Source: an uncultured Clostridiaceae bacterium (GTDB lineage Bacteria > Bacillota > Clostridia > Clostridiales > Clostridiaceae). Taken from it: 64,000 bases of DNA. The notes below the pieces were generated by a model. That model did no database searches. It saw nothing but the letters and a program-made list of their open reading frames with translations, and was not told the origin of the DNA. Below are positions 1 to 43,160 of this stretch, piece by piece. Each line of letters begins with the position of its first letter. Position 1 is the first letter of the stretch. The DNA is taken from the NCBI GenBank assembly GCA_963791805.1, contig CAWBTU010000004.1, positions 172,163 through 236,162 of the forward strand, read 5' to 3'. The translations under genes were made by a program, and so were the position numbers.

Positions 1-385
1 GATGAGGTAATGTCCAAAGTAAATGTCTATTTATTACTAAATCATAGGTATTGTCTGGTTCATCCAAATTTTCTGCATCGCCATAACTAAAATGAACTGG
101 TAATCCTTTCTCTTTAGCCTTTTTCTTGGCTACGCACATCATACCTTCAGATATATCTACCCCTTTAACATTGTTTCCAAGCTCTGCAAGCATAATAGCT
201 AGAAAGCCTGTACCAGTGCCTACATCAAGTATATTATTCCTTGTGTTGCCTGTTAAATTTCCAAGTGCATTTTTCCATGCTGTAGCTTCTTCTTTGCTCT
301 TTAGTCCATGAGCATATTGATTGTCATATTCATTTGCGGAAATATCCCAACTTGAAGCTATTTTCGTCTTAGTTAAAGTATTCAT
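1..385 (-). CDS. class I SAM-dependent methyltransferase (N-terminal ~128 aa; gene runs off window start)
   Basis: RC translation from ATG at 383-385 reads MNTLTKTKIASSWDISANEYDNQY...ILDVGTGTGFLAIMLAELGNNVKGVDISEGMM, containing the DVGTGTG SAM-binding motif I. Its start overlaps the stop of the upstream permease (TAATG). The six-frame ORF 126..311(+) is antisense to it and judged spurious. Confidence 0.7.
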   Translation of the reverse strand, partial: MNTLTKTKIASSWDISANEYDNQYAHGLKSKEEATAWKNALGNLTGNTRNNILDVGTGTGFLAIMLAELGNNVKGVDISEGMMCVAKKKAKEKGLPVHFSYGDAENLDEPDNTYDLVINRHLLWTLPH

Positions 386-1203
386 TAATTTATTCCTCCC
401 TGTAATCCAAATTTATTTTTTAGTGATTCCCCTAAGAAATTGATTGAAAGCATTGATATAACTATCATAATTCCAGGGAAAAGAGCTACCCACCAAGCAC
501 CTATAAGAATATCATTTTGGGCATTGCTCAGCATGTTTCCCCAAGAAGGTATTTGTGGTGGTATACCAATTCCTAAAAAGCTTAGAGATACCTCGGTAAA
601 AACTGCATGAGCGCAGTTGAATATCGCAATTACAAATATTCCTGAAAGACTATTTCGTAATAAATGATCCAGCATTATCCTCCAAGAAGGTGTCCCTAAT
701 ATAACTGCTGCTTTTACAAATTCTTTTTCCTTCAATTCTATAAACTGAGACCTTACAATCCTGGCAGTTGACATCCATCCTGTGAATCCTATAACAAGAA
801 TCATACTAACTACTCCGCCCTTTATTATGGCTTGTAGTGCAAGCATTATAATCAAACTTGGAATTGCCAGTAGTGCATCAAGTATTCTCATCATAAAACT
901 GTCAAACCAACCACCAATATAGCCACTAATACCACCAAACAATACACCAATTATAGTTGAAATTAACACCGCGATAATTGAAACGCTAAGTGATACACGT
1001 CCACCGTAAATAATCCTTGTATATACATCCCTTCCCATATTGTCTGTGCCTAAAATATGATTTTTACTAGGATGCATAAACACCTTTCCTAAATTAACAT
1101 CTACAGGGCTATAGTTAGTAAAAAAATTAGAGAACACTGATAGTAGAATTATTGTTAATAGAATTCCCCCCCAAATCTTTATTCCTCTATTCTCTTTCTT
1201 CAT
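385..1203 (-). CDS. ABC transporter permease, Opp/Dpp/Nik family (DppC/NikC-like)
   Basis: 272 aa with 6 predicted TM segments and typical C-terminal permease core (GIGIPPQIPSWGNMLSNAQ...ALFPGIMIVISMLSINFLGESL). It overlaps the upstream permease by 4 nt. Confidence 0.85.
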   Translation of the reverse strand: MKKENRGIKIWGGILLTIILLSVFSNFFTNYSPVDVNLGKVFMHPSKNHILGTDNMGRDVYTRIIYGGRVSLSVSIIAVLISTIIGVLFGGISGYIGGWFDSFMMRILDALLAIPSLIIMLALQAIIKGGVVSMILVIGFTGWMSTARIVRSQFIELKEKEFVKAAVILGTPSWRIMLDHLLRNSLSGIFVIAIFNCAHAVFTEVSLSFLGIGIPPQIPSWGNMLSNAQNDILIGAWWVALFPGIMIVISMLSINFLGESLKNKFGLQGGIN

Positions 1204-2168
1204 TTCTCAACATACCTCCTAAGCTTAGGATTCAATATCAAGGATGCTATATCAGTCAGCATTATACACAAGACCACAATAGCTCCGGATATCATAATGC
1301 AGCCCATTAAGAGAGGGTAATCCTTAGTAACTGTGGCTTTTACCGACAATTGCCCAAGACCTGACCAAGAAAAAAGAGATTCTATAACTACTGATCCTCC
1401 AAAGAAGGCTGGTATTGTTATTCCAAGATAATTAATATAAGGAACTATAGCATTCTTCAGTATTCCTCTTGTAATAAACCTTTCCTCCATGCCATTTGCC
1501 CTTGCAACCTGCACATAGTAGCTTTTACTTTCTTCCTTTATTTTTTCCTGAATAAACCTAGCATACAGTCCTACATGAGTAAGCGCCATCACTAGAGTTG
1601 GTAATATTAGATGCTTCATTTGATCTATAAATCCACCACCACCTCGTAAACTTTCTGTTCCTGAGGAAGGTAATATCTTTAGATTAACTGCAAAAAACAT
1701 TATAAATAGAATTCCAAGCCAAAAAGCTGGTATTGAACTTAATACTATACTAAAAACAGATAGTCCTCGGTCCCAAAGGGAAGCCTGTTTAAGACCACCT
1801 TTGATTCCAAGTATTATAGAAAAAATAATAATTAGTAGCATAGCGCTGGAAAAGAGCTTAAGAGTATTAGGAAATCTTTCTTTTAAAATCTTTTTTACCG
1901 GCCTGCCTTCTCTATAAGAAACTCCCATATCACCTTTGGAAATTTTACCTGCCCATTTAAAATACCTAACAAAAACTGGTTTATCCATACCATAAGAATT
2001 ATTTATATTTCGCCTTTCCACTGGTGTCAATTTTTGAGCATCAGCTCCAAACATTGCTAAGGCGGGATCTCCTGGTGCTGCATTTATTATAATAAAAGAA
2101 ATAATACTTACAAATATCAGTACTATGATGCTTTGTGCTAGTCTTTTTAGGATAAACTTACTAATCAT
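1200..2168 (-). CDS. ABC transporter permease, Opp/Dpp/Nik family (DppB/NikB-like)
   Basis: 322 aa, [27 protein letters not shown]... with an EAA-like loop. It overlaps the SBP gene end by 8 nt. Confidence 0.85.
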
Positions 2169-3726
2169 TTATTTTCCATTCCTCAATATTCCACAAGAAC
2201 CCAGCTCCATGATGTCCAAGTGTTGTTTCTTTTATTCCATTAACCTTCTTATTTACACCATAAAGTGCCTGAAGATATGCAATGTAGTTATATGGAGGAT
2301 TATCAGAAATCTCTTGCTGAAACTCTTGATATACCTTCTTCCTTTCTTCAGTGTCTACTGTAGTTCTACCCTTTTGAAGCAACTCATCCACTTTGCTATC
2401 CGAATAAGAACCATAATTATATCCTGTTCCTCCGATTTGGCTTGAATGATAAAGCTTATAAGTATGATCATCTGCATCAAATGGACTTCCCCAACCAAGT
2501 AAAAAGGCATCACATTTTGCAATTGTAATTACACTCCAGTCAAGAGCATCAACTTTTACATCTGCTCCTATCTTTTTAAATTGAGAAGCTATATAGTTAG
2601 CCATATTTACCCTTACTTCATCAGTTATTGGACAAGTAAGTGTAAATGCTAGCTTCTTTCCATTCTTATATCTCATGCCATCTGAACCTTTAATCCATCC
2701 AGCCTGATCAAGTAGTGTTTCAGATTTTTGAAGATCATAATTATATTTTTCAACATTTTCATTTTTATATCTATTTATTTGAATTGGAGAATACGCTTCA
2801 AAACCATATCCCATCAGTATATTATCTACTACAGCTTTTCTATCTACTGCATAATTAAAGGCTTTTCTTACATTTGCATCTTTCCATAAATCAATTTTCA
2901 TATTATACATCATGCATCTGTAGTCTGCTGTTGGAACTTTGTAAACTTTTATACTATTAATCTTCTCAATCTTAGCAACCTGACCTGGCTCTAAAAATGC
3001 CATGTCTACTTCTCCAGTTTGAAGTTGTACCGCTCTTACATTCCCATCAGGAATAAATTTAAATATAACATTGTCTATTGATGCTACAGTTCCATAAAAA
3101 TTTTTGTCTGCCTTTAGTGTAAGACTTTTTCCCTTTTCCCATTTATCAAACATATATGGACCACAGCCAATAGGTTTTTGGTTGAATTCTGCTGTTTTTA
3201 CATCTTTACCTTCAAAAGCATGCTTCGGAACTATTCCTATAGTCAACTTGTCAAGTAATGGTGGAAATGTATCCTTTAGAGTAATCTTAATTTCATAGTC
3301 ATTAACTATTTCTATTGAATTAATTTCTTCAAATTCAGACTTAATCTTAGAAGCTGATTTATCGTCAAGTATAGTATTTAGAGTGAAAGCTACATCCTCG
3401 GCTTTTAACTCCTTGCCATCATGAAACTTTATTCCTTTTTTAATTTTGAAGTTATATACACGTCCATCTTTTGAGATTTCATAGGATTCAGCTATATCCT
3501 TTTGAGGTATGTTATCTTTATCAAACCTCATAAGTCCTCTAAAAATAAGACTGTCCACATTTGTTGTATCTAAAGTAGGGTTGATTTTTGCATATTCAGT
3601 TTCTGCTGCATATATCAAAGTCTTGTCTTTTCCAGAAGATTTGTCATCTGAATCCTTTGAACATCCTGTTACAAAAATTGATAGTGACAAACTAAGTATT
3701 AATATAATTGCAAGTAATCTTTTCAT
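2161..3726 (-). CDS. ABC transporter substrate-binding lipoprotein, SBP family 5 (NikA/DppA/OppA-like)
   Basis: 521 aa with lipoprotein signal [13 protein letters not shown] and family-5 SBP architecture. RBS AAGGAG lies 8 nt upstream of the ATG. Confidence 0.85.
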
Positions 3727-3958
3727 TCTAAATTACACTCCTTCATTTTTTCTTCATTGTTTTTCTCCCTTTACTTTCTATCCTTTATTCTCTTCATACC
3801 TCTCCCCCTCAAAAAAAACAAAACCACGACAATTGATATCTATTTCAGAAATCAACCTTCGTGGTTTAAACTTATTACTTATATATATTAAATTGTGATA
3901 GTATGTATACCCTCGTAGTATACATGTAGATAATACTATACAATGATAATTTTGTAAA
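3727..3958 (-). promoter_or_regulatory. structured 5' leader copy 1 (promoter + hairpin + terminator/attenuator), candidate riboswitch
   Basis: Read on the minus strand. Promoter: -35 TTTACA (3953-3958), 17 nt spacer, -10 TATTAT (3930-3935). Hairpin 1: AUGUAUAC-UACGAGG-GUAUACAU (3903-3925). Terminator: AAACCACGA...UCGUGGUUU (3821-3867) with inner stem GGUUGAU/AUCAAUU and apical loop UUCUGAAAUAGAU, then UGUUUUUUUU (3810-3820). Small uORFs (MKRIKDRK*) precede the SBP start. Confidence 0.55.
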
Positions 3959-4024
3959 CATAATTCGTAAAATTTTACACTATTTTCTATATAGTAGTGC
4001 TATTTATTTAGTATTAATGTTATG

Positions 4025-5053
4025 CTAAAAATACTCTGAAATATTTAAATCTATAGTACCGCCTCTTCTTAATTCATTTCTTAGATCAAGCATTTTGCAA
4101 TCAATTATTTGAAGTTTTTCTAGATTGCTTTTTTCTTGTGAGCTTGTTTCAATAATTTTATCTATGCCGCCATTTTTAATCACAAGTCTTTTATCTCCCA
4201 TTAGAGCTAGAATTGGATTATGAGTTGACATTATTACTATTTTTTCTTCTTTTACTAAGAGTTCTAAGGATTTTTTTCTATCAATGCCCGCATTTTCAAT
4301 TTCATCAATAAGAATAATTGGTGATGTGCTAAGTAATGCTGTATCAGCAATCATTAGTGCTCTAGACTGACCTCCACTTAATTGTGTCACAGGAGTGTTT
4401 AAGGTAAAGTCTTCTCCTGCTAAAGAATTGGCACATTCAATAATGGCTTTAACCATAGAGTCAACATTCTTAATCATTCTACTCTCTGCATGCATGGTTA
4501 TAAATTCTTCAACAGTAAGATCCATGATGAAATTCATGTTTTGTGAAAGCTGTGCAACTAATTTATTTTGCATTGAAAACCTTTTCTCCTGAGATGGAAT
4601 TTGGTTATTAACTAGAATTTGTCTTTTAGTAGGAGTATCCTTTTGTGCTAGACACTCAATATCTTCAAGTAATCTACTTTTACCAGAGCCTGTTGGCCCT
4701 ACTATGCTTATTATCTCACCTGGGTGCATTGTCAGCGTAAAGTTCTCTTTGCATCCTATTTTATCAATACCACCAATTATAGTAATTGAACTTAAAACCG
4801 CCCTATTATCAATGTTTAATAATCTCATTTCCTCTACAAAATGATTAAAACTAGCTAAAATATTTTGTCTTTCTATTGCCTTACTTAACAAAAATTCATC
4901 AGTAAGTTCACACACTATTTCTTCACAACTTTTAGAAGTATCAAAATTTATAATACTTAATTGTGAGAAAAAATCTTTAATATATGGATGATCATTAATT
5001 AATTCTATTAATGGTATAGTGGTTAATTCTCTCAAGATATCACGTTCTTTCAT
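4025..5053 (-). CDS. ABC transporter ATP-binding protein with ~75-aa N-terminal extension (atypical, not DppD/F-like)
   Basis: Walker A GPTGSGKS, signature LSGGQSRAL, Walker B ILIDEIE, H-loop STHN. It lacks the oligopeptide-ABC C-terminal domain. There is no SD before the first ATG; the internal M76 has weak GAGGAA. Confidence 0.75.
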   Translation of the reverse strand: MKERDILRELTTIPLIELINDHPYIKDFFSQLSIINFDTSKSCEEIVCELTDEFLLSKAIERQNILASFNHFVEEMRLLNIDNRAVLSSITIIGGIDKIGCKENFTLTMHPGEIISIVGPTGSGKSRLLEDIECLAQKDTPTKRQILVNNQIPSQEKRFSMQNKLVAQLSQNMNFIMDLTVEEFITMHAESRMIKNVDSMVKAIIECANSLAGEDFTLNTPVTQLSGGQSRALMIADTALLSTSPIILIDEIENAGIDRKKSLELLVKEEKIVIMSTHNPILALMGDKRLVIKNGGIDKIIETSSQEKSNLEKLQIIDCKMLDLRNELRRGGTIDLNISEYF

Positions 5054-5088
5054 ATAGTTTTTATTTTTAAAAATTAAATTTATATAAG

Positions 5089-5118
5089 TTATGCCCCTAT
5101 TACTTTAATAATAAGGGC
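5089..5118 (-). other. 12-bp intercistronic RNA hairpin between GTPase and ATPase genes
   Basis: Minus-strand AUGCCCUUAUUA-uuaaag-UAAUAGGGGCAU (one G.U pair), followed by an AU/U-rich tract 40 nt before the ATPase ATG. Confidence 0.4.
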
Positions 5119-5149
5119 ATTATGAAAAAAGGTTTGGGGGTCTAAATAA

Positions 5150-5893
5150 TTATTGAGAAGCAAGCTCTTCTTTTTCTTTTGCTGCCTCAAAATCCAAACA
5201 CATCTGCGTAACAATTTCTCCGCCGATTTGATAGTCTTTGCCAATTCTAACTTCCCCTTGGCAATATGAACAAAATGCTTCCGGCATAGCATATCTAAGT
5301 TTCTTTCCTATAAGTCCATCTACTATTTCAGCAGAATTTAAACAACGTCTACTAAACTCATAGGCACCTTGTCCAGTAATACCATTTACATTCATAACCT
5401 TCGCCTTAGGGTTAGCTTGTTTCACTCTAAGTGAAAAAACTTCTCTTTCTGCTTGAGATACAATATCTCCTTTTGTTATTGCAACAATATCCGCAAGTTT
5501 AAGCATTGGACCAATTTTTTGTGGTGTATTAACCCCAGATAAATTATCTATAACACATACAGCTAATACCTCATTAATGTGAGGAGAACACCTATTGCAA
5601 AGACCTGCACTTTCGCTTATAAGTACATCTAATTCTTGTACTTCACCCCATTTAACAAACTCTTCAATGTTGCAAATATAGTAATGGTCAGGACACAAAT
5701 TTCCTGAAAGTCCTACCTTTACTGGTATTCCTGCTTTTTCATACGTTGCATCATCATAAGTTGTTAGACAATCAAACTTAATAATTCCAACCTTTAAATT
5801 TTCTTCCTTCAAACACTCTATAGCTTTTAATATTACTGAGGTTTTACCTGAAGAAGGAGGACCAGAAACTGTAATTAATCTCAAAACAATCAC
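5150..5893 (-). CDS. G3E-family P-loop GTPase, putative metallochaperone (HypB/UreG/CobW-like)
   Basis: 247 aa. P-loop VSGPPSSGKTS, HypB-like motifs SGNLCPDH and ESAGLCNRCSP, G4 ITKGD, C-terminal CSYCQG. There is no CobW_C domain. Confidence 0.65.
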   Translation of the reverse strand: MIVLRLITVSGPPSSGKTSVILKAIECLKEENLKVGIIKFDCLTTYDDATYEKAGIPVKVGLSGNLCPDHYYICNIEEFVKWGEVQELDVLISESAGLCNRCSPHINEVLAVCVIDNLSGVNTPQKIGPMLKLADIVAITKGDIVSQAEREVFSLRVKQANPKAKVMNVNGITGQGAYEFSRRCLNSAEIVDGLIGKKLRYAMPEAFCSYCQGEVRIGKDYQIGGEIVTQMCLDFEAAKEKEELASQ

Positions 5894-6068: not shown

Positions 6069-6361
6069 TACTATTTTGTGAATTTTTACTTTATTTGTTA
6101 AATTAATTTATTCAGTTTATTTTCGTGATTCATGTTTGAGAATATAAACTGTACTCTAGAAAGCACCGATTTATATTCCTTCCAGGCCTACCCTTACCAT
6201 CATAAAATGAAAAAAAGCATTAATAAAATTGTAAATAATGGAATTTATAATTGGTGTTGCATTTAAAATAAATCCATGATACATTGTAAAATATAATTAT
6301 GTTCTTGCGCAATTACGTAATTGAGTAACTGTATAAACAAAAAGAATTTGGAGGGATTTAT

Positions 6362-7422
6362 ATGATTGACATGAGAAGTGATACATTAACAAAGCCAACT
6401 AAAGAAATGAGATCAGCTATTCATAATGTGTTAGTGGGTGATGATTGTTATGGAGAGGATCCAAACGTGAATTCACTTGAAAGTCATTGTAAAGAACTAT
6501 TTGATGTTGAAGCAGCGCTCTTTACCCCAAGTGGAACTATGAGTAATCAAATTGCTATTAAAGCTCAAGTTGAAGAAGGAAATGAAGTTATTACACACGC
6601 AAATTACCATATTAATTTTTACGAAAGTGCTTCTACAGCAATGCTAAGCAGAGCTGTACTAAATTGTACGAGAACCGAAAATGGAATTCTTGATACAAAA
6701 GATGTAGATTATTTAGTTCATTCTAAACCTAGAGGTCCACTATACTCAAAAGTTCAAATGGTAACAATTGAAAATACAATTAATTATTACCAAGGCAAGA
6801 CTTTCCCTCTAGAAAATATAAAAGAGCTTCATAGTTATACAAAAAGAACAAAATTAAATTACATTTAGATGGTGCTCGTTTATTTAATGCTCATATTGCG
6901 ACAAATGTACCATTATGTGAGTATGCGAAACATGTTGATTCCCTTAGTGTTTGTTTTGCTAAAGGACTAGGTGCCCCTTATGGATCAATGCTTATGGGAA
7001 GTGAAGAATTTATTAGCAAAGCAAGAACCATTAGAAAGCAATTTGGAGGTGGCATGCACCAAATCGGTATGTATGCTGCTGCTGCCCAATTTGCACTTGA
7101 CCACCATCTTACAGAATTAGCGAAAGATCATGAATTAACCAAGGAAATGGCTACTTTATTGAATAAAATAGATGATGTGGAAATTAACCCTGATTTAGTA
7201 GAAACCAACATGATTTTTATGAATATTAAACATTTAAAGGTTGATACTGATGATTTTGTCAAACTATGTGAGAATAAAGGATTATTAGTATTTCCCTGGT
7301 TACCAGGTGTGATTCGCATGGTAATTACTCGACATATTCAAAGAAAAGATGTATTCAATGCCTCATTGATTATCAAGGAAGTAATACAAGAACTTGCTGG
7401 TAGATGTGAACATGTTTGCTAA
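6362..7422 (+). pseudogene. ltaE: low-specificity L-threonine aldolase, disrupted by a +1/-1 frameshift in an A-rich tract (~6839-6855)
   Basis: ORFs 6362..6868 and 6988..7422 are the N- and C-terminal parts of threonine aldolase (MIDMRSDTLTKPT...VGDDCYGEDPNVN...TPSGTMSNQIA / ...LHLDGARLFNA...). The conserved IKLHLDGARLFNA is only read in the shifted frame across caaaaagaacaaaattaaatt. Confidence 0.7.
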
Positions 7423-8587
7423 ATATCGACAATACATAGTAAGTTTTCTAGTTCGAATCTTTAATTCTATAGGATTTTTTATAATATCGCCATTTCTCTC
7501 CCTTTGGTTATTGAAAGTGAAGGGACTGAATTTAAATGATACAAGTTTTATTGTAGCTTCGTTCACACTTTCTTCTAAGGCAGGGAGTGTTTTGGTAGCA
7601 GGTATTATCGATCACTTGGGATTCAAGTTAAGTATTAATATAGGGTTGTTTTTGTCCTCTCTGATTTTGTTTCTGATTACATGGACTAAGCCATATATCC
7701 TAATTGTGTTGCTCACCATTCTCCTAGGAATAGCTATCAGTCTGTATAATATTTCATTAAAGGCGCATATTTCAAATCAGGAAGATCAAGTTCGATTACA
7801 ATCCTATGCACTGTTAAACATTGCAGTGAACGTAGGCGCTGCAATGGGTCCATTAATAGCAGGAGTGATTTTTGATTGGAATCCAAAATTTTTATTACTT
7901 TTGAGTATGTCTAACTACTTTGTTGCAGGCATGATTTCCATGTTTCTACCACGAGATCAAGTTAAACCAAAGAATACTGATAAAAATGTTATCAACTTCT
8001 TAATAGAAGAGAGAAGATCTATTGAGTTTCGAATTTTTATTCGATTTATTCTCCTCTCATCCCTGTTTTGGTTTCTCTACACACAAATATTTACAACCCT
8101 TCCGATGTATTTATCTGACAATATGGATGCAAAAATTATAGGTTTGCTATTTACATTAAACTCTATCACTGTTATATCCGTGCAAGGAGTCTTTCCAAAG
8201 CTAAGAAATAATCTAAGTAGTAAAATGTGGTATCTTGTCGCAGTCCTACTGATTAGCAGCTCCTTTCTTCTATTATGGACAAGCAAATCGGTTTTTCTCG
8301 TCATGCTTGCTATAGTACTTTTTAGCATCAGCGAGATTATATGGGTACCGTCAGTAGATCATGAATTATCTTCCTTACGTGGAAGTTTGAGTTCTTCATG
8401 GGCATTTGGAATCAGTGGTGTAATTTGGGGTGTTTTTGAATCAGCGGGAAGTTACTTCGGATTAAATGTGTTTAAACAATTTGGTGATGCTACTTTTCTG
8501 ATACTTTCCTTGATTGGATTTATCATTTTTACAATATTTTTAAAGGCTTATTCTGTTGAGAAAACTCAAATACAAGAAAGCCACTAG
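7412..8587 (+). CDS. MFS transporter (12 TM)
   Basis: Hydrophobic protein of about 391 aa. I place the start at ATG 7412 (MFAKYRQ...) rather than the listed TTG at 7394. It overlaps the ltaE 3' end. Confidence 0.75.
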   Translation: MFAKYRQYIVSFLVRIFNSIGFFIISPFLSLWLLKVKGLNLNDTSFIVASFTLSSKAGSVLVAGIIDHLGFKLSINIGLFLSSLILFLITWTKPYILIVLLTILLGIAISLYNISLKAHISNQEDQVRLQSYALLNIAVNVGAAMGPLIAGVIFDWNPKFLLLLSMSNYFVAGMISMFLPRDQVKPKNTDKNVINFLIEERRSIEFRIFIRFILLSSLFWFLYTQIFTTLPMYLSDNMDAKIIGLLFTLNSITVISVQGVFPKLRNNLSSKMWYLVAVLLISSSFLLLWTSKSVFLVMLAIVLFSISEIIWVPSVDHELSSLRGSLSSSWAFGISGVIWGVFESAGSYFGLNVFKQFGDATFLILSLIGFIIFTIFLKAYSVEKTQIQESH

Positions 8588-8596
8588 GAGGATTGA

Positions 8597-9817
8597 ATGA
8601 AACGTATATTATTTATTGAAACAAATACAACAGGAACTGGATTGCAGGCAATGAAATACGCGAAAAAGCTCGGTTATGAAGTTCATTTTTGGACAAGTGA
8701 TTTGAACCAGTATCGTTTTATGGGAGAACAGCATCCAAGTCAGCTTGCAGATCAAATTGAAACATTAGATACTTTTGACGCTGAGTTCATGCATCAAAAA
8801 ATTTTGAATGAAAACCTGTCTTTTTCTGGAGTACTAGCTTTTGACGATTATCACTTGATGCAATGTGCCTATTTAGCAAAGAAATTGTCACTACCAGGTC
8901 AAAAATTAGAAGCCTTAGCTAAGGTTAGAAACAAAGCAAAAATGCGAGAACATCTTACAGAAGTTGGATTTTCACGTATCAAACAACCAAAATATCAGAT
9001 TGTATCAGAAACAGAGCCGAGTCATTATAATAATATTCCTTTTCCATGCATACTAAAGCCAGTAGATGATAGTGGTAGCAATGGCGTTACTATTTGCCAT
9101 ACCACGGAAGAACTACAGTGTGCACTTGAAATCGAAAAGGATAGGATAGTGAACGAAAGAGGATATAAGTTAGCTCGACAATGGCTGATAGAAGAAAAAA
9201 TAAGTGGTCAGGAATACTCAGCAGAATTGGTCTATCATCATGCAAAATGGAAGCTCATCTCCATCACACGCAAGGAAACATATGGCTCTCATTCCGTAGA
9301 GTGTGGCCATGTATCAGGTACATTTAAAATTAAAAAAGACATTGAACAGGATTTGTCAGAACTTCTTATGGTATTTGATTTAGATTATAGTGCAGCGCAT
9401 GTTGAATTTTTTCAATCGGAAGATGGGTTGTATTTAGTAGAGATTAATCCACGCTTGGCTGGTGATTGCATTCCAGATCTTGTTGAAATTGCTACTGGTG
9501 TCAATATGATACAAAATATTGTGAAGCAGTCTGTAGGTTTGGAAGAGGACCTTATTATATCTAATCATCAGTATGCTGCAATTCAATTCATACTCCCTGA
9601 GCATCAAGGCACTTATTCAGCTGTTTCAGGCGTTGAAAATTTAAAGAATCGTATGGATATAGAGCGCGTTCATATCGGTCCACTTCCTTATACTTCTCAT
9701 GGGATTAAAAGTAGTTACCATAGAATTGGATATGTCATTGCAAAAGCCACTTCTGCAGAAGATGCGCGTCAAATTGCTGTCGAAGCCGTCAATCAATTAG
9801 AATGGAGTGTGAGATAA
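8597..9817 (+). CDS. ATP-grasp domain protein (carboxylate-amine / L-amino-acid ligase-like)
   Basis: 406 aa. N-terminal pre-ATP-grasp (MKRILFIETNTTGTGLQAMKYAKKLGYEV), central ATP-grasp (E..ISGQEYSAELV) and C-terminal VEINPRLAGD. RBS TAGGAGG. Confidence 0.7.
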   Translation: MKRILFIETNTTGTGLQAMKYAKKLGYEVHFWTSDLNQYRFMGEQHPSQLADQIETLDTFDAEFMHQKILNENLSFSGVLAFDDYHLMQCAYLAKKLSLPGQKLEALAKVRNKAKMREHLTEVGFSRIKQPKYQIVSETEPSHYNNIPFPCILKPVDDSGSNGVTICHTTEELQCALEIEKDRIVNERGYKLARQWLIEEKISGQEYSAELVYHHAKWKLISITRKETYGSHSVECGHVSGTFKIKKDIEQDLSELLMVFDLDYSAAHVEFFQSEDGLYLVEINPRLAGDCIPDLVEIATGVNMIQNIVKQSVGLEEDLIISNHQYAAIQFILPEHQGTYSAVSGVENLKNRMDIERVHIGPLPYTSHGIKSSYHRIGYVIAKATSAEDARQIAVEAVNQLEWSVR

Positions 9818-9818
9818 T

Positions 9819-11027
9819 TTGAAAAAGCTTTTAGTGATATTAGGTGCAAGTGAATATGGTGTTTCAGCAGGGAAAAAGCTAGGTTTACAAGTTGTTGTAA
9901 TTAGCCCAAAAGGTGCTAGCATTTCAAGTGAAATCACATCACAGGTAGAAGGTGTTTTCTTTGTAGAAAGCTTAGAAAAAGAAGAATGTGTGTTTAGGCA
10001 GGTACAAAAAATAAAACAGATATACATAAATATTGATCTGATACTTAGCTTTACTGAGCTTGGTTTAGAAACTGCCGCAAAAATTAGTAAAAAGCTAGGT
10101 TTACCAACGAATGAACCCTCAGTGATTCAAGCTACCCGTAACAAGATGATGATGCGAAAGAAATTTCAATCAAGAACAATCCTTTCTTTAGCTTTTCAGT
10201 CAGGTTTTATCAAAGAATTTATCAAAGAACTACCAATGAAACCACCTTTTATTGTAAAACCATTGGATGGGTTTGGAAGTAAGAATATATACTACATATC
10301 AAGTGCGAAAGAGTGGCTCAATTGGTATGAGGAACAACAAGAAAATGATGCTATTCATTGGATTATTGAACCTTATATTAAAGGTAAAGAATACAGTGTT
10401 GAAAGCATTTCTTGTAATGACAACCATCAAATTTTAGGGATCACAGAAAAAACCACAACTGGAAAGCCCCATTTTGTTGAAACAGGTCACAGCGTACCAG
10501 CTAATTTATCCCAGGAGGAAAAACAACACATCGAAGAAATTGTCATTGAAGCATTATATTGTCTAGATGTTAGATATGGTCCATGTCATACAGAAGTGAA
10601 GTATGATAAAATGACCAATCAAGTCTCAATTATTGAGGTTCACACAAGACCAGGAGGAGATTTTATACCTTATTTACACGAACTTTCTTCTGGTTTGAAT
10701 CAGTACGAACTAGGAATACAGTCATATTATTCAAGTGAATGTATTTCATTAGAAATGAGAAAAAAACTTTCATACAGTATGATAGAATTCTTTGTTTTTC
10801 CAGAAGGAATCTTAATGGAAAAAGGACTTTCCTTTCCAATGCAAAAAGAGTATACCAAAGCATTGGATATATATTATAATATAGGAGATGAAATCAAAGA
10901 GACCGTTGATTCTTGCTCTAGAGGTGGTCATGTGATTGTTTGTTCTTCTGATAAAGAGAAAAGTATACAGCTACTACAAGAGTGCAAAGAGAATATCACT
11001 TTAAAAATAAAAAATAAAGGTATGTGA
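9819..11027 (+). CDS. ATP-grasp domain protein (second paralog)
   Basis: 402 aa, TTG start 1 nt after the previous stop. KKLLVILGASEYGVSAGKKLG...IIEPYIKGKEYSVESI...EVHTRPGGD. Confidence 0.7.
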   Translation: MKKLLVILGASEYGVSAGKKLGLQVVVISPKGASISSEITSQVEGVFFVESLEKEECVFRQVQKIKQIYINIDLILSFTELGLETAAKISKKLGLPTNEPSVIQATRNKMMMRKKFQSRTILSLAFQSGFIKEFIKELPMKPPFIVKPLDGFGSKNIYYISSAKEWLNWYEEQQENDAIHWIIEPYIKGKEYSVESISCNDNHQILGITEKTTTGKPHFVETGHSVPANLSQEEKQHIEEIVIEALYCLDVRYGPCHTEVKYDKMTNQVSIIEVHTRPGGDFIPYLHELSSGLNQYELGIQSYYSSECISLEMRKKLSYSMIEFFVFPEGILMEKGLSFPMQKEYTKALDIYYNIGDEIKETVDSCSRGGHVIVCSSDKEKSIQLLQECKENITLKIKNKGM

Positions 11028-11031
11028 TTAG

Positions 11032-12096
11032 ATGGCAGTTTTTGCAAAAACCCCCGTATGGAAGAGAAGTATCGTGAAAGTAAGGATTTCGCAAGTTTTT
11101 GAGATGATGACCTACCTTCGCTATTGTTATTTGGAACGCGATGAAGACGATATATTACTTAAAGAATTCTATATAGACCATAGCAATTTATTAGAAAAAT
11201 ATTATGGCAATTTCGAATATGGGTCACAATTCGCAGAATGTGTTCTTGGGCTTGGAGAGGATCACAGTATTGATGCATTCTTTCATTATCTCAATGAGGT
11301 TTCCAAAGAGGAATTCCTATTCTACTTATTGGGTAGATACATACCACTCGATCAACTTTCAGATATTTTGTTCCACAATCCACATCCAACTGTTCAAATA
11401 GAAAGAATGATTAAAGAGATGGATGGCCTTGTCAACCCTGAACAATTGGCATTTGTTGAAAATTATGAGGCTTATAGCCAAGAACTCTTCAAACTATGGA
11501 AAGATTTTTACGATGCTTATTTCATTCAAAAATCGAGTACTCTTGAGGAATCCTGGAGAAAAGTAAATAAACAATTAGAGTTAGACCTTAAAACCAATAG
11601 TTTAGACGATGTCATCTCAAAGCTATTAGTAGGCTACGACTTACCAAAACAATTTCCAAGTAAAGAAACAGAAGATATCTACCTGTATCCATCTTTCTCA
11701 GTTTCTCCTAAATTTATGATAATCTGGGGGTTAGGTCAACTTCATATTGTATATAATGCTTTCTTATACGCAAATAACTTAGATCAAAATCATCAGCTAA
11801 TAGAAAAAATACATGACGAAACCATGTTAGAGGATATATCTGATTTTAGTAAATCTTTGTCAGAGATAATTAGGTTGCAAATATTACTATTGATTGCTAA
11901 AACTTCTAAAATTAAAGCACAATTAATTGCACAAGAACTAGATATTAGCACTGCTACGGTATCTAGACATTTAAGCACGTTAAAACAAAATAAAATCATT
12001 TTAGAACAAAAAGAAATGGGATGTAACATATACCAAATTAACAAGGACGCTTTTGAAGACTATTTTCAGTGTATCCGTAGGTTAGTAATTAAATAG
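11032..12096 (+). CDS. transcriptional regulator: C-terminal ArsR-type winged HTH, ~260-aa uncharacterized N-terminal domain
   Basis: C-terminal LIAQELDISTATVSRHLSTLKQNKII matches the ArsR/SmtB recognition helix. The N-terminal 260 aa show no recognisable motif. It is the last gene of the operon. Confidence 0.6.
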   Translation: MAVFAKTPVWKRSIVKVRISQVFEMMTYLRYCYLERDEDDILLKEFYIDHSNLLEKYYGNFEYGSQFAECVLGLGEDHSIDAFFHYLNEVSKEEFLFYLLGRYIPLDQLSDILFHNPHPTVQIERMIKEMDGLVNPEQLAFVENYEAYSQELFKLWKDFYDAYFIQKSSTLEESWRKVNKQLELDLKTNSLDDVISKLLVGYDLPKQFPSKETEDIYLYPSFSVSPKFMIIWGLGQLHIVYNAFLYANNLDQNHQLIEKIHDETMLEDISDFSKSLSEIIRLQILLLIAKTSKIKAQLIAQELDISTATVSRHLSTLKQNKIILEQKEMGCNIYQINKDAFEDYFQCIRRLVIK

Positions 12097-12110
12097 AACA
12101 AATTTAAACC

Positions 12111-12139
12111 AAGCCAAGCTAACCCTTGGCTTTTTTATT
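12111..12139 (+). terminator. intrinsic terminator
   Basis: GCCAAGcuaaccCUUGGC followed by UUUUUUAUUUU. Confidence 0.6.
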
Positions 12140-12236
12140 TTGGCATATAAGGCTTATACACTGCATTTCAAAACCTTATTCATGGTCATACTCAAGATGA
12201 TATTTATTCTCGTCGTATGCTGCACAAGGTTTAAAT

Positions 12237-13259
12237 TCATATAATATATTTAATTTCTTTATCTTTAAATAATCCTTCTATCTCTTCTATGAAGAATTCT
12301 TTTATTGAATCTAGATTTTCTTTTGGGTATACATACTTTCCATATCCAAATTGTCCAAATTTAAACTTGCGTTCTTCATCATTCATTGGTAGTTGACTCT
12401 CAGGAAATATATCAAGTATTCTATTTTTAGCTATTATTGTATAGCGGTGAGATATAATCTCAAAAGTTACAGGATACTTTAAATTATTTGGTATTTTTGT
12501 GGATAATTCTAATAATAAATCATGATATTCATCTCTCCAATTAGGATAAATAAATATTGGTGCAATTAAAAATCCCATAGGGTACCCTGCTTTAGCAACT
12601 CTAATGCTTGCTTCTATTCTTTTATCAAGAGAAGCTGTAAAATGTTCATATTGGTTTATTATCGAAGAAGTATTAATACTAAATCTTATTTCTGTATGAC
12701 CCTTATGTTCTAAATTAAGTAATGAATCTATATCATTGTACTTTGTTACAAATCTAAATCTAGCATTTTCGTTACTAGCAAAAAATCTAATAGCTTTATC
12801 TATGGAATGTGTATAGGGTTCTACTGGTATTGGGTCAGAGGTTGCAGCTCCTTCAAATATAGTTATTTCAGGTAATCTATCCTTTATGTATTTTTGAGCT
12901 TCATTGAGAATATCATCTATATTTGCATGAACTCTTATAAAAGGCTTATCCCCTAACTTAGTATTTAAGTAACAGTACTCACATTGCCCCATACAACCTG
13001 ATACTAATGGAAGCTGATAATGGGCTGAAGGTTTACATGATTGAAACTTTAAACTCTTCTTCGATCCAACGACTAAAGTCTTCTTACCCTCTCTATATTG
13101 AGTGAATAAATTGTCACCAGGAATATGCTGCTTCAGTTTATTTGAAGTCAAGTTTATAATTTCCGTATTATCCTTATTTTTAAACTTGTCAAAAATCTCC
13201 CTAGCCATTTGGTATTCTAATGAATCTTTCTCAAATACAATCCTTTCGGGCTTAAACAT
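12237..13259 (-). CDS. splB: spore photoproduct lyase (radical SAM)
   Basis: CMGQCEYCYL radical-SAM cluster motif and SP-lyase-like sequence throughout. I chose ATG 13259 (RBS GGAGAGGGG) rather than the upstream in-frame ATG at 13364. Confidence 0.8.
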   Translation of the reverse strand: MFKPERIVFEKDSLEYQMAREIFDKFKNKDNTEIINLTSNKLKQHIPGDNLFTQYREGKKTLVVGSKKSLKFQSCKPSAHYQLPLVSGCMGQCEYCYLNTKLGDKPFIRVHANIDDILNEAQKYIKDRLPEITIFEGAATSDPIPVEPYTHSIDKAIRFFASNENARFRFVTKYNDIDSLLNLEHKGHTEIRFSINTSSIINQYEHFTASLDKRIEASIRVAKAGYPMGFLIAPIFIYPNWRDEYHDLLLELSTKIPNNLKYPVTFEIISHRYTIIAKNRILDIFPESQLPMNDEERKFKFGQFGYGKYVYPKENLDSIKEFFIEEIEGLFKDKEIKYII

Positions 13260-13331
13260 ATTTTCCCCTCTCCTTGCTTTATTTACAAAAGTATTATTAT
13301 TATTTTCTGAAACTCCAATAATATTCAAATA

Positions 13332-13368
13332 TTTTTTTGGTGCCAGGCACGTGACAAGTGACAAGTGA
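13332..13368. promoter_or_regulatory. 37-nt conserved motif, copy A (identical to the RC of 26751-26787)
   Basis: TTTTTTTGGTGCCAGGCACGTGACAAGTGACAAGTGA. It contains the palindromes GTGCCaGGCAC and CACGTG and 2.5 direct repeats of GTGACAA. It lies 69 nt upstream of the 13437 start and 73 nt upstream of divergent splB. Confidence 0.5.
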
Positions 13369-14612: not shown

Positions 14613-14671
14613 TAATACTTTACAAATTGATTTATTAATATTATAATGAGTTAAAATTATAACTGAATAAA

Positions 14672-14838
14672 ATTAACTAGGGGTGCCCTTTGGCTGAGAT
14701 GGTTATTTAACCAATCCCTTTGAACCTGATGTAGTTAGTACTACCGTAGGAAAGTTATTTACCTTAATTATTGTGATTGAATTATTGCGATAAATTTACT
14801 TAGGAAGCTTTACCTTATGGAAAAGCTTCCTTTTTGTA
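14672..14838 (+). ncRNA. TPP riboswitch (THI element) with terminator expression platform
   Basis: CUAGGGGUGCCC..GGCUGAGA..ACCC.UUGAACCUGAUGUAGUUAGUACUACCGUAGGAAAG matches the THI-box consensus. Terminator GGAAGCUUUaccuuauggAAAAGCUUCC + UUUUUG (14803-14836). Promoter TTTACA-N17-TATAAT at ~14623-14651. Confidence 0.85.
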
Positions 14839-41170: not shown

Positions 41171-42829
41171 TTATTTTTTTATAAACTTGCTAAATCTGTT
41201 TTTAATTTTTTCTTCTCCAATTATCTGCATAACAGTGTAAAGATCAGGAGTGCTAGATCTATGAGTTATTGCTGCTCTAACAGCTGCTGCTACATCTGCT
41301 ACCATTCCTTTAAACATTTCTGGATTGGCTTTGTATTCTTTTCTGTTTGAGGTGTAGCCAAGTTCTGCTCCAAAAGATTTTAATTCATCAAACCAAGTGT
41401 CTTTATCCACATTAAAATTAAACACTTTGGAATAAGCTTCAATTATACGCTTAGCTTCTGCTAATTCCATATTTTTAGGAAGCTCAATTTGATCTACTTG
41501 CTCTTTGTCAAATAATTCATCAAAGAAATAATAAACTTTACCTCTAACATCCATCCATTTTGCAAAGTCTTTTCTTGGGTTGGAGCCTTCTTTATCTATA
41601 TTAAAGATTTCTTTAGAAAAAGTAGCATTAGCTGTTATAAATTCATACATCTCCATATCGAATTCCTTTGCCCACTTTGTATAACTAGCATATACTTCAT
41701 CAGCTTTCATTCTAGCTATAACATCCTTTGAAACATCTCCAAGTTTAACAAGGTCAAATAATGCTCCACTTTTGCTCATCTTGTCTAGAGTTATTTCAAA
41801 GCTTGAGCTATCTTCATATGGATTTTCCACTCTCCATTCCTCAAAACCTGAATTTATTATATTTAATAAATACTCATTTACTGATTGAACTGGATATCCT
41901 ACTTCATTGTAGTATGAAACTGCCGCTTCAGGGTCCTTCCTTTTAGACAGCTTTCTCTTTGATCCACCATCTAGCTTCATTATTGTTGGAGTGTGGGCAT
42001 AATTAGGAATCTCAAAACCCAAAACATTAAAAAGCTGAATATGGATTGGAAGTGAGGATAGCCATTCTTCTCCTCTAATAATATGTGTAGTTCCCATAAG
42101 GTGGTCATCTATAGCATGGGCAAAATGATATGTTGGTAGTCCATCACCTTTTATTAGAACAATATCTTGATTGTTTTCAGGGAAGGATATATCCCCCTTA
42201 ATCAAATCATTGATTTCTACCCTTTTTTCACTTTCTCCAGGTGATTTTAATCTAAGTATATAACTTTCTCCACTGTTTATTCTTTCAATTGCCTCTTCAC
42301 TTGATATATTTCTACACTTGGCGTATTCTCCATAATAACCTGGTGTTACCTTTTGTTCTACTTGATTTTCTCTAACTTTAGTTAATTCTTCTGGGCTACA
42401 AAAGCATGGATATGCCAATCCCTTTTTAATTAAATCAAATGCAAAAGTCTTATATATTTCTTCTCTTTCACTTTGTCTGTATGGACCATAATTGCCTTTT
42501 GAGCTATCTTTGGACATCATACCTTCATGAAAATTCAATCCAAAATTATGCATAGTGCTTATTGTATCTTCTACAGCACCTTCTACTTCTCTTTTTTGAT
42601 CAGTATCCTCTATTCTAATATAGAATATTCCTTCACTTTGATTAGCCAGTCTTTCATCGATTAAGGCTGAAAATACCCCACCAATATGTTGAAACCCTGT
42701 AGGACTTGGTGCATATCTTGTAACTTTAGCACCTTCCTTTAAACTTCTCTTTGGATATTTCTCATAATAATACTCGGGACTTTTATCAATGCTTGGGTAT
42801 ATTAATTTCGCTAATTTTTCAAAACTCAT
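41171..42829 (-). CDS. gltX: glutamate--tRNA ligase
   Basis: HIGH-type motif [12 protein letters not shown] and KLSKR (KMSKS). 552 aa, long for GltX. Confidence 0.85.
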
Positions 42830-42844
42830 AATTATTTCTCCTTC

Positions 42845-43160
42845 CTTTAATTAAAAAATAAAAGCCTCTCATCCTAAAAAATTAGGACGAAAGGCTGTTT
42901 TCCGCGTTACCACCTAAATTGGTTAATTTCCCTTAACCCAACTCAATTATCTTTAAGGGAATTACCCCATAAATATACTCCACCCCTTAGGATTTTCTAT
43001 TTATTGCTCCAAAGCTTCTTTCCACAGCGTTAAATTCTAAGCTTCCACCCTACTTAAATCTCTTTAAATTAACTCTCCATGTACTCTTCTTTCTCATTGC
43101 ACAATATTTAAACACAATTGAAATTATACAGGTAACTATTGCTCTTGTAAAGATGTTTTG
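42845..43160 (-). ncRNA. T-box leader regulating gltX
   Basis: Minus-strand T-box sequence AAUUUAGGUGGUAACGCGG (42902-42920). Terminator AGCCUUUCGUCCUAAuuuuuUAGGAUGAGAGGCU + UUUUAUUUUUU (42852-42896), immediately upstream of the gltX RBS. Confidence 0.75.

Follow-up and report, generated by a model that had tools for sequence, protein, structure and literature searches.

Ligase-dependent peptide pathways and the locus under study

Only a small number of peptide pathways rely on ligases alone, and antimetabolite antibiotics are among what they produce in several cases. The stand-alone L-amino-acid ligases (LALs), namely BL00235 of Bacillus licheniformis, YwfE/BacD of the bacilysin pathway and RizA/RizB of the rhizocticin pathway, combine the ATP-grasp fold with the LAL_C2 domain; RizA and RizB are two tandem ligases that act in sequence. 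The same logic may apply to the locus described here, a five-gene operon located in a 64,000-nucleotide stretch (hereinafter the window) of contig CAWBTU010000004.1 from an uncultured Clostridiaceae bacterium, which encodes a pyridoxal phosphate (PLP)-dependent aldolase (ALD), a transporter of the major facilitator superfamily (MFS), two ATP-grasp ligases (GRA and GRB) and a regulator (REG). The LALs are the closest proteins of solved structure to the two ligases and share with them the fold and LAL_C2; the differences lie in the low identity, the missed cut-offs of the named equivalogs, the PLP aldolase partner and the different kind of regulator. With a probability of about 0.6, the locus is a horizontally acquired accessory operon of five genes with its own promoter/operator, the role of which is to produce a small peptide or amide and release it from the cell. 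Pathways of this kind, independent of nonribosomal peptide synthetases (NRPS), are already known; noteworthy are the dedicated aldolase, the rare two-domain putative repressor with a candidate operator and, in relatives, the carriage of the operon as the sole cargo of a Tn3-family element.

Two further systems invite comparison. The hsv (phevamine A) operon of Pseudomonas syringae is said to be compact and NRPS-independent, with two ATP-grasp ligases and a precursor-modifying enzyme that yield a small secreted amide; the likeness is one of logic, and hsv differs in its amidinotransferase partner and polyamine substrate as well as in the lack of an MFS transporter and of a comparable regulator. 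Tn1546, the carrier of vanRSHAX, is a Tn3-family transposon that combines an ATP-grasp ligase, a substrate-supplying enzyme and its own regulator. Relatives of the operon are likewise Tn3-family elements with a regulated ATP-grasp ligase module and a substrate-supplying enzyme, whereas the ligases of the cassette are of the LAL type rather than the Ddl/Van type, an exporter takes the place of the peptidases, and the window contains no transposon.

A link to the diaminobutyrate and diaminopropionate (Dab/Dap) pathways is more distant. DabC is a fusion of an ATP-grasp domain with argininosuccinate lyase, the first of which is also found on its own or joined to the PLP enzyme; dab-like operons of the pacidamycin/napsamycin type contain a threonine aldolase, which co-occurs with this ATP-grasp clade, and the ATP-grasp half (N-domain) of DabC was given no role (PMC10906522, 2024). 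Among the curated hidden Markov models (HMMs), PRK02186, which presumably corresponds to DabC, scores best for both GRA and GRB, in its ATP-grasp half only, and the threonine aldolase of dab operons is an additional likeness; the differences are that the scores fall far under the cut-off and that the cassette has neither a cysteine-synthase-like beta-replacement enzyme nor a lyase. Relatives of GRA with about 29% identity are found on Streptomyces and Kitasatospora (actinomycete) plasmids under features annotated as 'pyridoxal-phosphate dependent enzyme', which suggests fusion with a PLP enzyme. As a lead, the ATP-grasp clade of GRA and GRB may recurrently work with PLP enzymes that make non-standard amino acids, and the link to the Dab/Dap pathways could help to assign a function to their ATP-grasp domain.

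Organization of the operon

According to the list of open reading frames (ORFs) and the reading of the sequence, the operon consists of five genes in the order ALD-MFS-GRA-GRB-REG and extends from the promoter/operator to the terminator (6257-12140; Table 1). The initial annotation described four tightly packed genes, and their coordinates and gaps (9 nt between MFS and GRA, 1 nt between GRA and GRB, and 4 nt between GRB and REG) match the ORF list. However, it placed ltaE merely in front of these four genes, counted neither the aldolase nor the promoter/operator as part of the unit and overlooked a frameshift, a deletion in the A-run at 6841-6845. The aldolase gene, with its stop codon at 7420-7422, overlaps by 11 nt the MFS gene, the ATG of which (7412) is an in-frame start inside an ORF that opens with TTG at 7394, and the aldolase is a member of the conserved cassette (see below). 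Strong Shine-Dalgarno sequences precede GRA (AGGAGG) and the aldolase (GGAGGG); those of MFS, GRB and REG are weaker, as expected for coupled genes.

Table 1. Coordinates in the window of the features of the operon and of the neighbouring genes.
Feature	Position	Strand	Remarks
Promoter-like region	6257..6292	+	TTGCAT-17-TACATT, or TTAAAA-18-TAAAAT with TG-extended -10 at 6285-6292
Candidate operator	6291..6330	+	Five 8-bp-phased units, ATATAATT ATGTTCTT GCGCAATT ACGTAATT GAGTAACT, that resemble ACGTAATT
Core 12-bp palindrome AATTACGTAATT	6311-6322		Within the candidate operator
Aldolase-like gene (ALD; GntG family)	6362..7422	+	First gene; frameshifted in the assembly
MFS transporter	7412..8587	+	391 aa; probable exporter; Pfam MFS_1
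ATP-grasp ligase A (GRA)	8597..9817	+	406 aa; L-amino-acid-ligase type; ATP-grasp_4 + LAL_C2
ATP-grasp ligase B (GRB)	9819..11027	+	402 aa; TTG start; ATP-grasp_4; old paralogue of GRA
Regulator (REG), N-terminal domain	11032..11817	+	262 aa; fold without solved relative; presumed ligand sensor
REG, C-terminal ArsR/SdpR-like winged helix-turn-helix and stop	11839..12096	+	About residues 270-350
Intrinsic-terminator-like hairpin and T-run	12111..12140	+	Hairpin 12111-12132; closes the operon
splB	12237-13364		Convergent with the operon
CobW/HypB-type GTPase	5150-5893	-	Operon divergent from the cassette
ABC ATPase	4025-5053	-	Operon divergent from the cassette
SBP_bac_5 binding protein	2161-3726	-	Operon divergent from the cassette
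Two permeases	385-2168	-	Operon divergent from the cassette

The promoter is predicted from a match at 6263-6292 in a consensus promoter scan; the cassettes of Geobacillus, Anoxybacillus and Aneurinibacillus have a clear TTGACA-17-TAATAT at the equivalent site, directly 5' of the repeats described below. At the other end, the terminator-like hairpin is bidirectional and also faces splB. The 468 nt that precede the aldolase contain neither a riboswitch nor a T-box leader, whether searched with gathering thresholds or with E ≤ 1. A 44-aa ORF (MFENINCTLESTDLYSFQAYPYHHKMKKSINKIVNNGIYNWCCI; 6132-6266, plus strand) that lacks a Shine-Dalgarno sequence is located upstream of the promoter. It was considered as a precursor-peptide gene and rejected, given the absence of a ribosome-binding site and of conservation (nothing similar was found in the upstream regions of other cassettes), and is judged to be a chance ORF.

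The two ATP-grasp ligases

Comparison with domain and family profiles classifies both GRA and GRB with the L-amino-acid ligases and not with the ATP-grasp enzymes of primary metabolism. GRA matches ATP-grasp_4 (PF13535; 2e-24, 86.3 bits, cut-off 27) and LAL_C2 (PF18603; 8e-14, 52.1 bits, cut-off 29.4), and GRB matches ATP-grasp_4 (4e-21, 75.7 bits, cut-off 27); the GRB orthologues in L002 and L094 carry unmarked PF18603 matches. In single-sequence searches of the PDB, the L-amino-acid ligase BL00235 and 4dim come out on top for both proteins (GRB alone against BL00235, 3vot: 1.4e-19), and a profile of 18 GRA-family sequences retrieves BL00235 (3vot) at 1.6e-30, BacD at 3e-13, carbamoyl-phosphate synthetase (CPSase) at 6e-13 and RizA at 3e-9. 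None of the primary-metabolism equivalogs of NCBIfam comes near its cut-off: the scores are 22 against 502 for purT, 20 against 288 for purD, 29 against 1027 for CPSase, 31 against 246 for Ddl and 24-28 against 723-739 for the biotin carboxylase of acetyl-CoA carboxylase (ACC).

The two ligases are old paralogues with about 22-28% identity to each other. The alignment of 18 GRA-family members (the window and 17 homologues) contains 98 invariant columns, including K154 and E282-x-N284-x-R286, and the corresponding motifs of GRB, K147 and E273-x-H-x-R277, are conserved in all orthologues. Thus placed by motif position rather than by structural superposition, the ATP/Mg-binding and catalytic residues (the Lys of the IKP motif, the Glu pair and E-x-N/H-x-R) are invariant in both family alignments. 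From its TTG start, the N-terminus of GRB aligns with the orthologues from residue 1.

The initial annotation regarded a pair of ATP-grasp enzymes next to an MFS transporter as the hallmark of LAL dipeptide clusters and proposed an HMM classification of the pair. The LAL class is supported by LAL_C2 and by BL00235, BacD and RizA as closest proteins, whereas 'hallmark' claims too much with respect to the product and to the direction of MFS transport. The same annotation invoked logic of the bacilysin or rhizocticin type; the locus is not a cluster of either type. The equivalogs of the named LALs in NCBIfam (BacD, DdaF, LdmS and PylC) are missed by GRA and GRB more than 10-fold, with BacD (NF053745) at 27 bits for GRA and 44 bits for GRB against a cut-off of 850; no prephenate-to-anticapsin enzymes (BacABCFG) occur among the neighbouring ORFs, and the ORFs between 385 and 14612 include neither phosphoenolpyruvate mutase nor any other gene of a phosphonate pathway.

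The aldolase and the transporter

In the assembly, the 1-nt deletion noted above divides the aldolase gene into two ORFs (6362-6868 and 6988-7422). An independent Logan contig assembled from short reads (L001, ERR12035932) matches the window over 7343 nt with a single difference, an additional A (A6 instead of A5), and encodes an intact 353-aa aldolase with the HLDGAR and FAKGLGAP (PLP-lysine) motifs. On the simplest reading, the split reflects either an error in a homopolymer or a minor variant, an assembly error being the probable cause, and accordingly the contig may contain further frameshifts of this homopolymer type. With 314.8 bits, the intact protein exceeds the cut-off of the GntG-family model NF041359 (230), and it misses that of the LtaE equivalog (234, cut-off 312); its nearest solved relative is the L-allo-threonine aldolase of T. 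maritima (1jg8, 1e-83), and it is 58-70% identical to the cassette orthologues. By the NF041359 score, the 1jg8 match and the PLP-lysine motif, the protein resembles the GntG-family and low-specificity L-threonine aldolases, from which it differs in that it is part of a mobile ligase operon and not of glycine/threonine housekeeping. The association of a threonine aldolase with the ligases, suggested previously, is borne out: some ten species of Bacillales share the five-gene order, so that the aldolase is part of the operon.

The transporter matches Pfam MFS_1 (8e-23) and is 45-53% identical to the orthologues in other cassettes.

The regulator and its candidate operator

REG consists of two parts. 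The Pfam matches (HTH_5, HTH_11 and HTH_24) are confined to residues 276-323, in a winged helix-turn-helix (HTH) of the ArsR type; the NCBIfam models for ArsR (NF033788, 45.1 against 55) and SdpR (NF033789, 50.6 against 100) both remain under their cut-offs. The N-terminal domain, in which the initial annotation had recognised no motif, is indeed without recognisable relatives: Pfam has no match to residues 1-265, nor any consistent match to the domain even at E ≤ 10, no solved structural relative was found, and among 1.84 billion cluster representatives only 32 match it, about two thirds of them 346-367 aa long and the rest shorter, probably fragments. Modelled alone, the domain is mostly helical with a small sheet (pLDDT 79.7, pTM 0.78). 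Orthologues of REG are 39-49% identical, and the columns conserved in the family include Ser20, Glu24, Glu69, Tyr98, Arg102, Trp156 and Asp242. The invariant or near-invariant columns of the alignments contain no Cys and, in the N-domain, no His, the sole conserved His (H313) being located in the HTH, which suggests that the ligand would be organic rather than a metal. Inspection of residues 270-354 showed neither an alpha3 CxC nor a His-rich or alpha5 Asp/His/Glu metal site. Compared with the ArsR/SmtB and SdpR repressors, REG differs in that a 262-aa domain without known relatives precedes its C-terminal HTH, in the absence of metal-site motifs, in the sub-threshold scores and in a candidate operator whose palindromes overlap and repeat every 8 bp.

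More remote relatives of REG, with 22-26% identity and an equal length of the two domains together, were noted at L090 6417-7472, L092 8001-9053 and L093 4754-5806; P0090 comes from a metagenome-assembled genome (MAG) of Spirochaetales, and L092 and L093 are metagenome contigs. In each case the gene is divergent from a molybdopterin oxidoreductase of about 700 aa and a large unannotated protein, not from ligases. The domain pair therefore defines a small general family of regulators that elsewhere control unrelated operons, and its use as a marker of the pathway was rejected, the spirochaete relatives being found beside the oxidoreductase and not beside ligases.

Directly after the sigma-A-type promoter, repeats of ACGTAATT in 8-bp phase form overlapping 12-bp palindromes AATTACGTAATT. 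The array starts at the -10 element, no phased run of this kind in the window is longer, and the exact palindrome AATTACGTAATT is unique in the 64 kb; among 93 loci, it is confined to cassette promoters, where it takes up this position. When the 330 nt upstream of the aldolase were lined up across all cassettes, four perfect copies of ACGTAATT were found in Geobacillus, five to six in Anoxybacillus, five in Aneurinibacillus and seven degenerate ones in the L007 type, and inspection showed dispersed copies in L095 and L096. The 11 regulator-bearing cassette loci that were scored have phased runs, and none of the three regulator-less loci does. The motif is absent from the loci without REG, that is, those of the Bacillus cereus group (L004, L017, L100 and L102, the latter two by inspection) and of Chengkuizengella (L010). 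This co-occurrence of motif and regulator supports the view that REG represses the whole operon, its own gene included, and REG probably binds the ACGTAATT array. With a standard DNA-binding domain, a rare putative sensor domain and a well-delimited candidate operator, REG could yield a new ligand-responsive switch.

Conservation, variation and decay of the cassette

By tblastn, the five-gene order was found in Geobacillus (L002, L012), Anoxybacillus (L014, L015), Aneurinibacillus (L013), Heyndrickxia acidiproducens (L018) and Bacillus stercoris (L019), as well as in the lineage L094-L096 and in the loci that carry P0002 (L007-L009 and L011; the title of L011 gives Cytobacillus firmus, and P0002 is named H. 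sporothermodurans by NCBI). In Chengkuizengella (L010/L099), genes one to four keep this order and REG is missing. Identities to the window for ALD, MFS, GRA, GRB and REG are 70/52/55/52/49% in the L007-type copy, which is Tn3-borne, and 62/48/49/47/39% in Geobacillus; this identical ranking for all five genes fits inheritance as one block. In L007, every gene junction overlaps by 1-8 nt. The flanking genes differ in every lineage, which indicates that the block is self-contained.

A scan of species representatives (185,579 species) yielded 111 loci that encode a relative; 11 of these, all from Bacillales, are at least 46% identical. Judged from the names, with no statistics, this clade looks enriched in thermophilic or thermotolerant spore-formers, the host of the window being a different, low-GC spore-former; Geobacillus, Anoxybacillus, Aneurinibacillus thermoaerophilus and H. 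sporothermodurans are thermophilic or thermotolerant.

The B. cereus group has a reduced variant, with a single GRA (48-49.5% identical), no GRB, no REG, a MarR regulator, an aldolase that is present or absent, and a non-orthologous EntS-type MFS_3 transporter in place of the MFS protein. The replacement of transporter and regulator by non-orthologous ones around the same ligase suggests that the job of the transporter is generic export of the ligase product. These variants often reside in NRPS-rich islands of megaplasmids or adjoin an IucA/IucC cluster, and PGAP gives their proteins generic names ('MFS transporter', 'ATP-grasp domain-containing protein' and 'GntG family PLP-dependent aldolase'). 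The loci concerned are plasmids of B. toyonensis (L100) and Bacillus sp. BS98 (L102), L004-L006, L097/L098 and L101, with NRPS, isochorismatase, thioesterase and phosphopantetheinyl transferase (PPTase) genes, the IucA/IucC cluster or two PLP (PALP) enzymes as neighbours.

Disrupted copies are frequent. The aldolase is apparently frameshifted in Aneurinibacillus (L013 5749-6782) and in Anoxybacillus mongoliensis (L014 372-1405), GRA and REG in B. stercoris (L019 8001-11460), and GRA and GRB in H. faecalis (L020 6817-11466), where the aldolase is missing as well; a truncated 273-aa protein, P0026, is also on record. These frameshifts suggest repeated decay or, in single cases, sequencing errors. 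Given the decay in several lineages, the cassette is dispensable.

Mobility and composition

Direct evidence of mobility comes from a Tn3-family segment of 9.9 kb that is 96.6% identical between L008 (1799-11681) and L009 (1790-11681). The element is bounded by inverted repeats of about 98 bp that start with GGGGTCCTACC (GGGGTC) and contains a 985-aa Tn3-family transposase (DDE_Tnp_Tn3), a resolvase and, as its only cargo, exactly the five cassette genes; a 5-bp target duplication (TTTTC) is present in L008, and there is no clean duplication in L009. The same element is found in L007 (2577-11684), with an insertion sequence (IS) inserted in the transposase, and the three copies occupy three different genomic settings. 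The pair L007 and L011 was also considered as a case of inter-genus transfer and rejected: the two are 100% identical, flanks included, and probably represent one and the same strain. It is uncommon for a Tn3-family element to have a biosynthetic operon as its only cargo, and such carriage raises the question of the selectable advantage that the product confers.

The impression by eye that the region is GC-richer than its surroundings corresponds to a real excess (34.3% in the cassette against 31.5% in the window, +2.8 points), albeit a small one, with per-gene z values from +0.2 to +2.0 and z values of GC at third codon positions (GC3) up to 2.4. As evidence of transfer, GC alone was rejected as too weak, with z at most 2 and native genes such as thiG equally GC-rich. 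The shift in tetranucleotide composition is clearer: no other 5.7-kb block of the window deviates as strongly as the cassette (z = 3.2). Together with the Tn3-family carriage in relatives and the lineage-specific flanks, this outlier supports horizontal acquisition of the operon, which had been suspected from GC and for which these observations are the stronger evidence. The host, which has splB, is a poorly sampled low-GC spore-former; its housekeeping proteins are singletons at 90% identity.

Proposed function and alternative explanations

Under the proposed scheme, the aldolase would supply or interconvert a beta-hydroxy-alpha-amino acid of the threonine/allo-threonine type, or glycine; GRA and then GRB would join two or three amino-acid-like units at the expense of ATP into a small peptide or amide, with neither ribosome nor NRPS; and the MFS protein would export the product. 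The winged helix of REG would bind the 8-bp-phased ACGTAATT repeats at the -10 element and keep the operon off until a small molecule, either the product or a precursor, binds the N-domain. A more specific version can be offered only tentatively: the PLP aldolase would feed an unusual beta-hydroxy amino acid, for example allo-threonine, to the sequential ligases, giving an exported antimetabolite or metal-binding di- or tripeptide, the operon would have been spread by Tn3-family elements among Bacillales, and REG would represent a new class of ArsR-like repressors in which a 262-aa sensor domain, the fold of which has no solved relative, is coupled to the reading of 8-bp-phased palindromes. 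As a five-gene, naturally mobile and seemingly self-regulated cassette with a built-in precursor enzyme, the operon is a compact target for genome mining and discovery, of a size that permits synthesis and expression.

Several observations weigh against this assignment as a peptide- or amide-producing, exporting and transferred operon. LAL_C2 in GRB scores 26.3 bits, slightly under the cut-off of 29.4. The best curated HMM for GRA (190 bits) and GRB (160 bits) is PRK02186 (cut-off 625), an 890-residue 'argininosuccinate lyase' model to which both align only in the N-terminal 400 residues, the ATP-grasp half; with no role assigned to this half, GRA and GRB may not join two standard alpha-amino acids, and ligation of amino acids is a predicted activity. 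A glycine- or threonine-making aldolase would seem redundant with primary metabolism unless an unusual isomer is made. For the transporter, the weak NCBIfam matches include an H+/peptide symporter as well as efflux pumps, so that the direction of transport cannot be read from the sequence and export is only the likelier option. In the AT-rich window, the operator units outside the core palindrome are weak (5-6 of 8 matches). The window contains no transposon ends, the Tn3 inverted repeat of the relatives being absent at up to 3 mismatches; there is also no transposase near the cassette, and there are no convincing flanking inverted or direct repeats. Finally, full-text literature searches retrieved no published description of the cassette.

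The product might instead be a metallophore, that is, a metal-chelating peptide built by the ligases, exported by the MFS protein and retrieved with its metal by an Opp/Nik-type ABC importer under ArsR-family control. The genes divergent from the cassette, with a CobW-type GTPase, an ABC ATPase, an SBP_bac_5 protein and two permeases, would suit such a cycle, as would the ArsR/SmtB-type HTH of REG and, in the B. cereus group, the EntS-type MFS_3 transporter and the position of the module beside the IucA/IucC cluster (L004-L006) or, on plasmids, beside NRPS, isochorismatase and a dihydroxybenzoate (DHB)-AMP-ligase fragment. We nevertheless consider it rather unlikely: the Tn3-borne, Geobacillus, Chengkuizengella and L094-96 copies have no metal-related neighbours, nor does the module in another B. 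cereus-group context, REG lacks both the metal sites and the conserved Cys and N-domain His residues discussed above, and no building block rich in ligand donors is evident. By analogy with vanHAX of Tn1546, a transposon-borne cassette for resistance or modification of the cell envelope could also be envisaged, in which the aldolase makes a substrate, the ligases alter a peptide precursor or a toxin and the toxin is expelled by the MFS protein. Both LAL_C2 and the nearest neighbours, which are LALs, indicate ligation of free amino acids, the Ddl/Van equivalog scores are far under the cut-offs, partners of the peptidase, dehydrogenase or Mur type are missing, and the B. cereus variants reside in biosynthetic NRPS islands; all this makes such a function unlikely in spite of the Tn3-family carriage with a dedicated regulator, the efflux-type MFS protein with its weak similarity to Cmx/CmrA and the weak Ddl-C match of GRB (26.8 bits, cut-off 24).

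An intracellular role, with a dipeptide-like compatible solute or stress protectant as the product, or with salvage of an imported amino-acid derivative and the MFS protein as importer, is improbable, too. The weak POT-family match and the direction of transport, which the sequence does not fix, would accommodate it, and several hosts are, judged by name, thermophilic or thermotolerant spore-formers; yet the orthologous module of the B. cereus group uses a transporter of the EntS-type exporter family, ATP-grasp ligases are atypical of catabolism, and frequent decay and patchy presence (the 11 species representatives noted above) fit a dispensable secreted product better. It is very improbable that GRA and GRB are primary-metabolism enzymes (PurT, PurK, PurD, a CPSase fragment, biotin carboxylase or Ddl) or belong to a graspetide system, a type of peptide that is made by ribosomes and modified after translation (RiPP). 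Weak Pfam and NCBIfam matches to CPSase_L_D2, GARS_A, purT and Ddl, together with the 'biotin carboxylase' labels given to homologues by some sources, hint at the former, whereas every such equivalog scores 10- to 30-fold under its cut-off and the distribution is patchy and mobile. A graspetide would require a precursor gene, for which the coupled genes leave no room, and the ORF at 6132-6266 has neither a ribosome-binding site nor similar sequences upstream of other cassettes. A secreted small peptide or amide is the reading that we prefer.

Neighbouring genes and other features of the window

The ORFs around the cassette encode an ABC transporter, a CobW-type GTPase, SplB and a DUF4317 protein. 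The divergent operon (385-5893, minus strand) resembles an Opp/Nik-type uptake system with a metallochaperone-like GTPase. Two RNA elements above the Rfam gathering score are unrelated to the cassette: a thiamine pyrophosphate (TPP) riboswitch (14669-14769, plus strand), behind which the order and sizes of the ORFs from 14850 onward suggest an operon of the thiS-thiF-thiG type, and a T-box leader (42880-43106, minus strand) ahead of a gene for a 552-aa protein (41171-42829).

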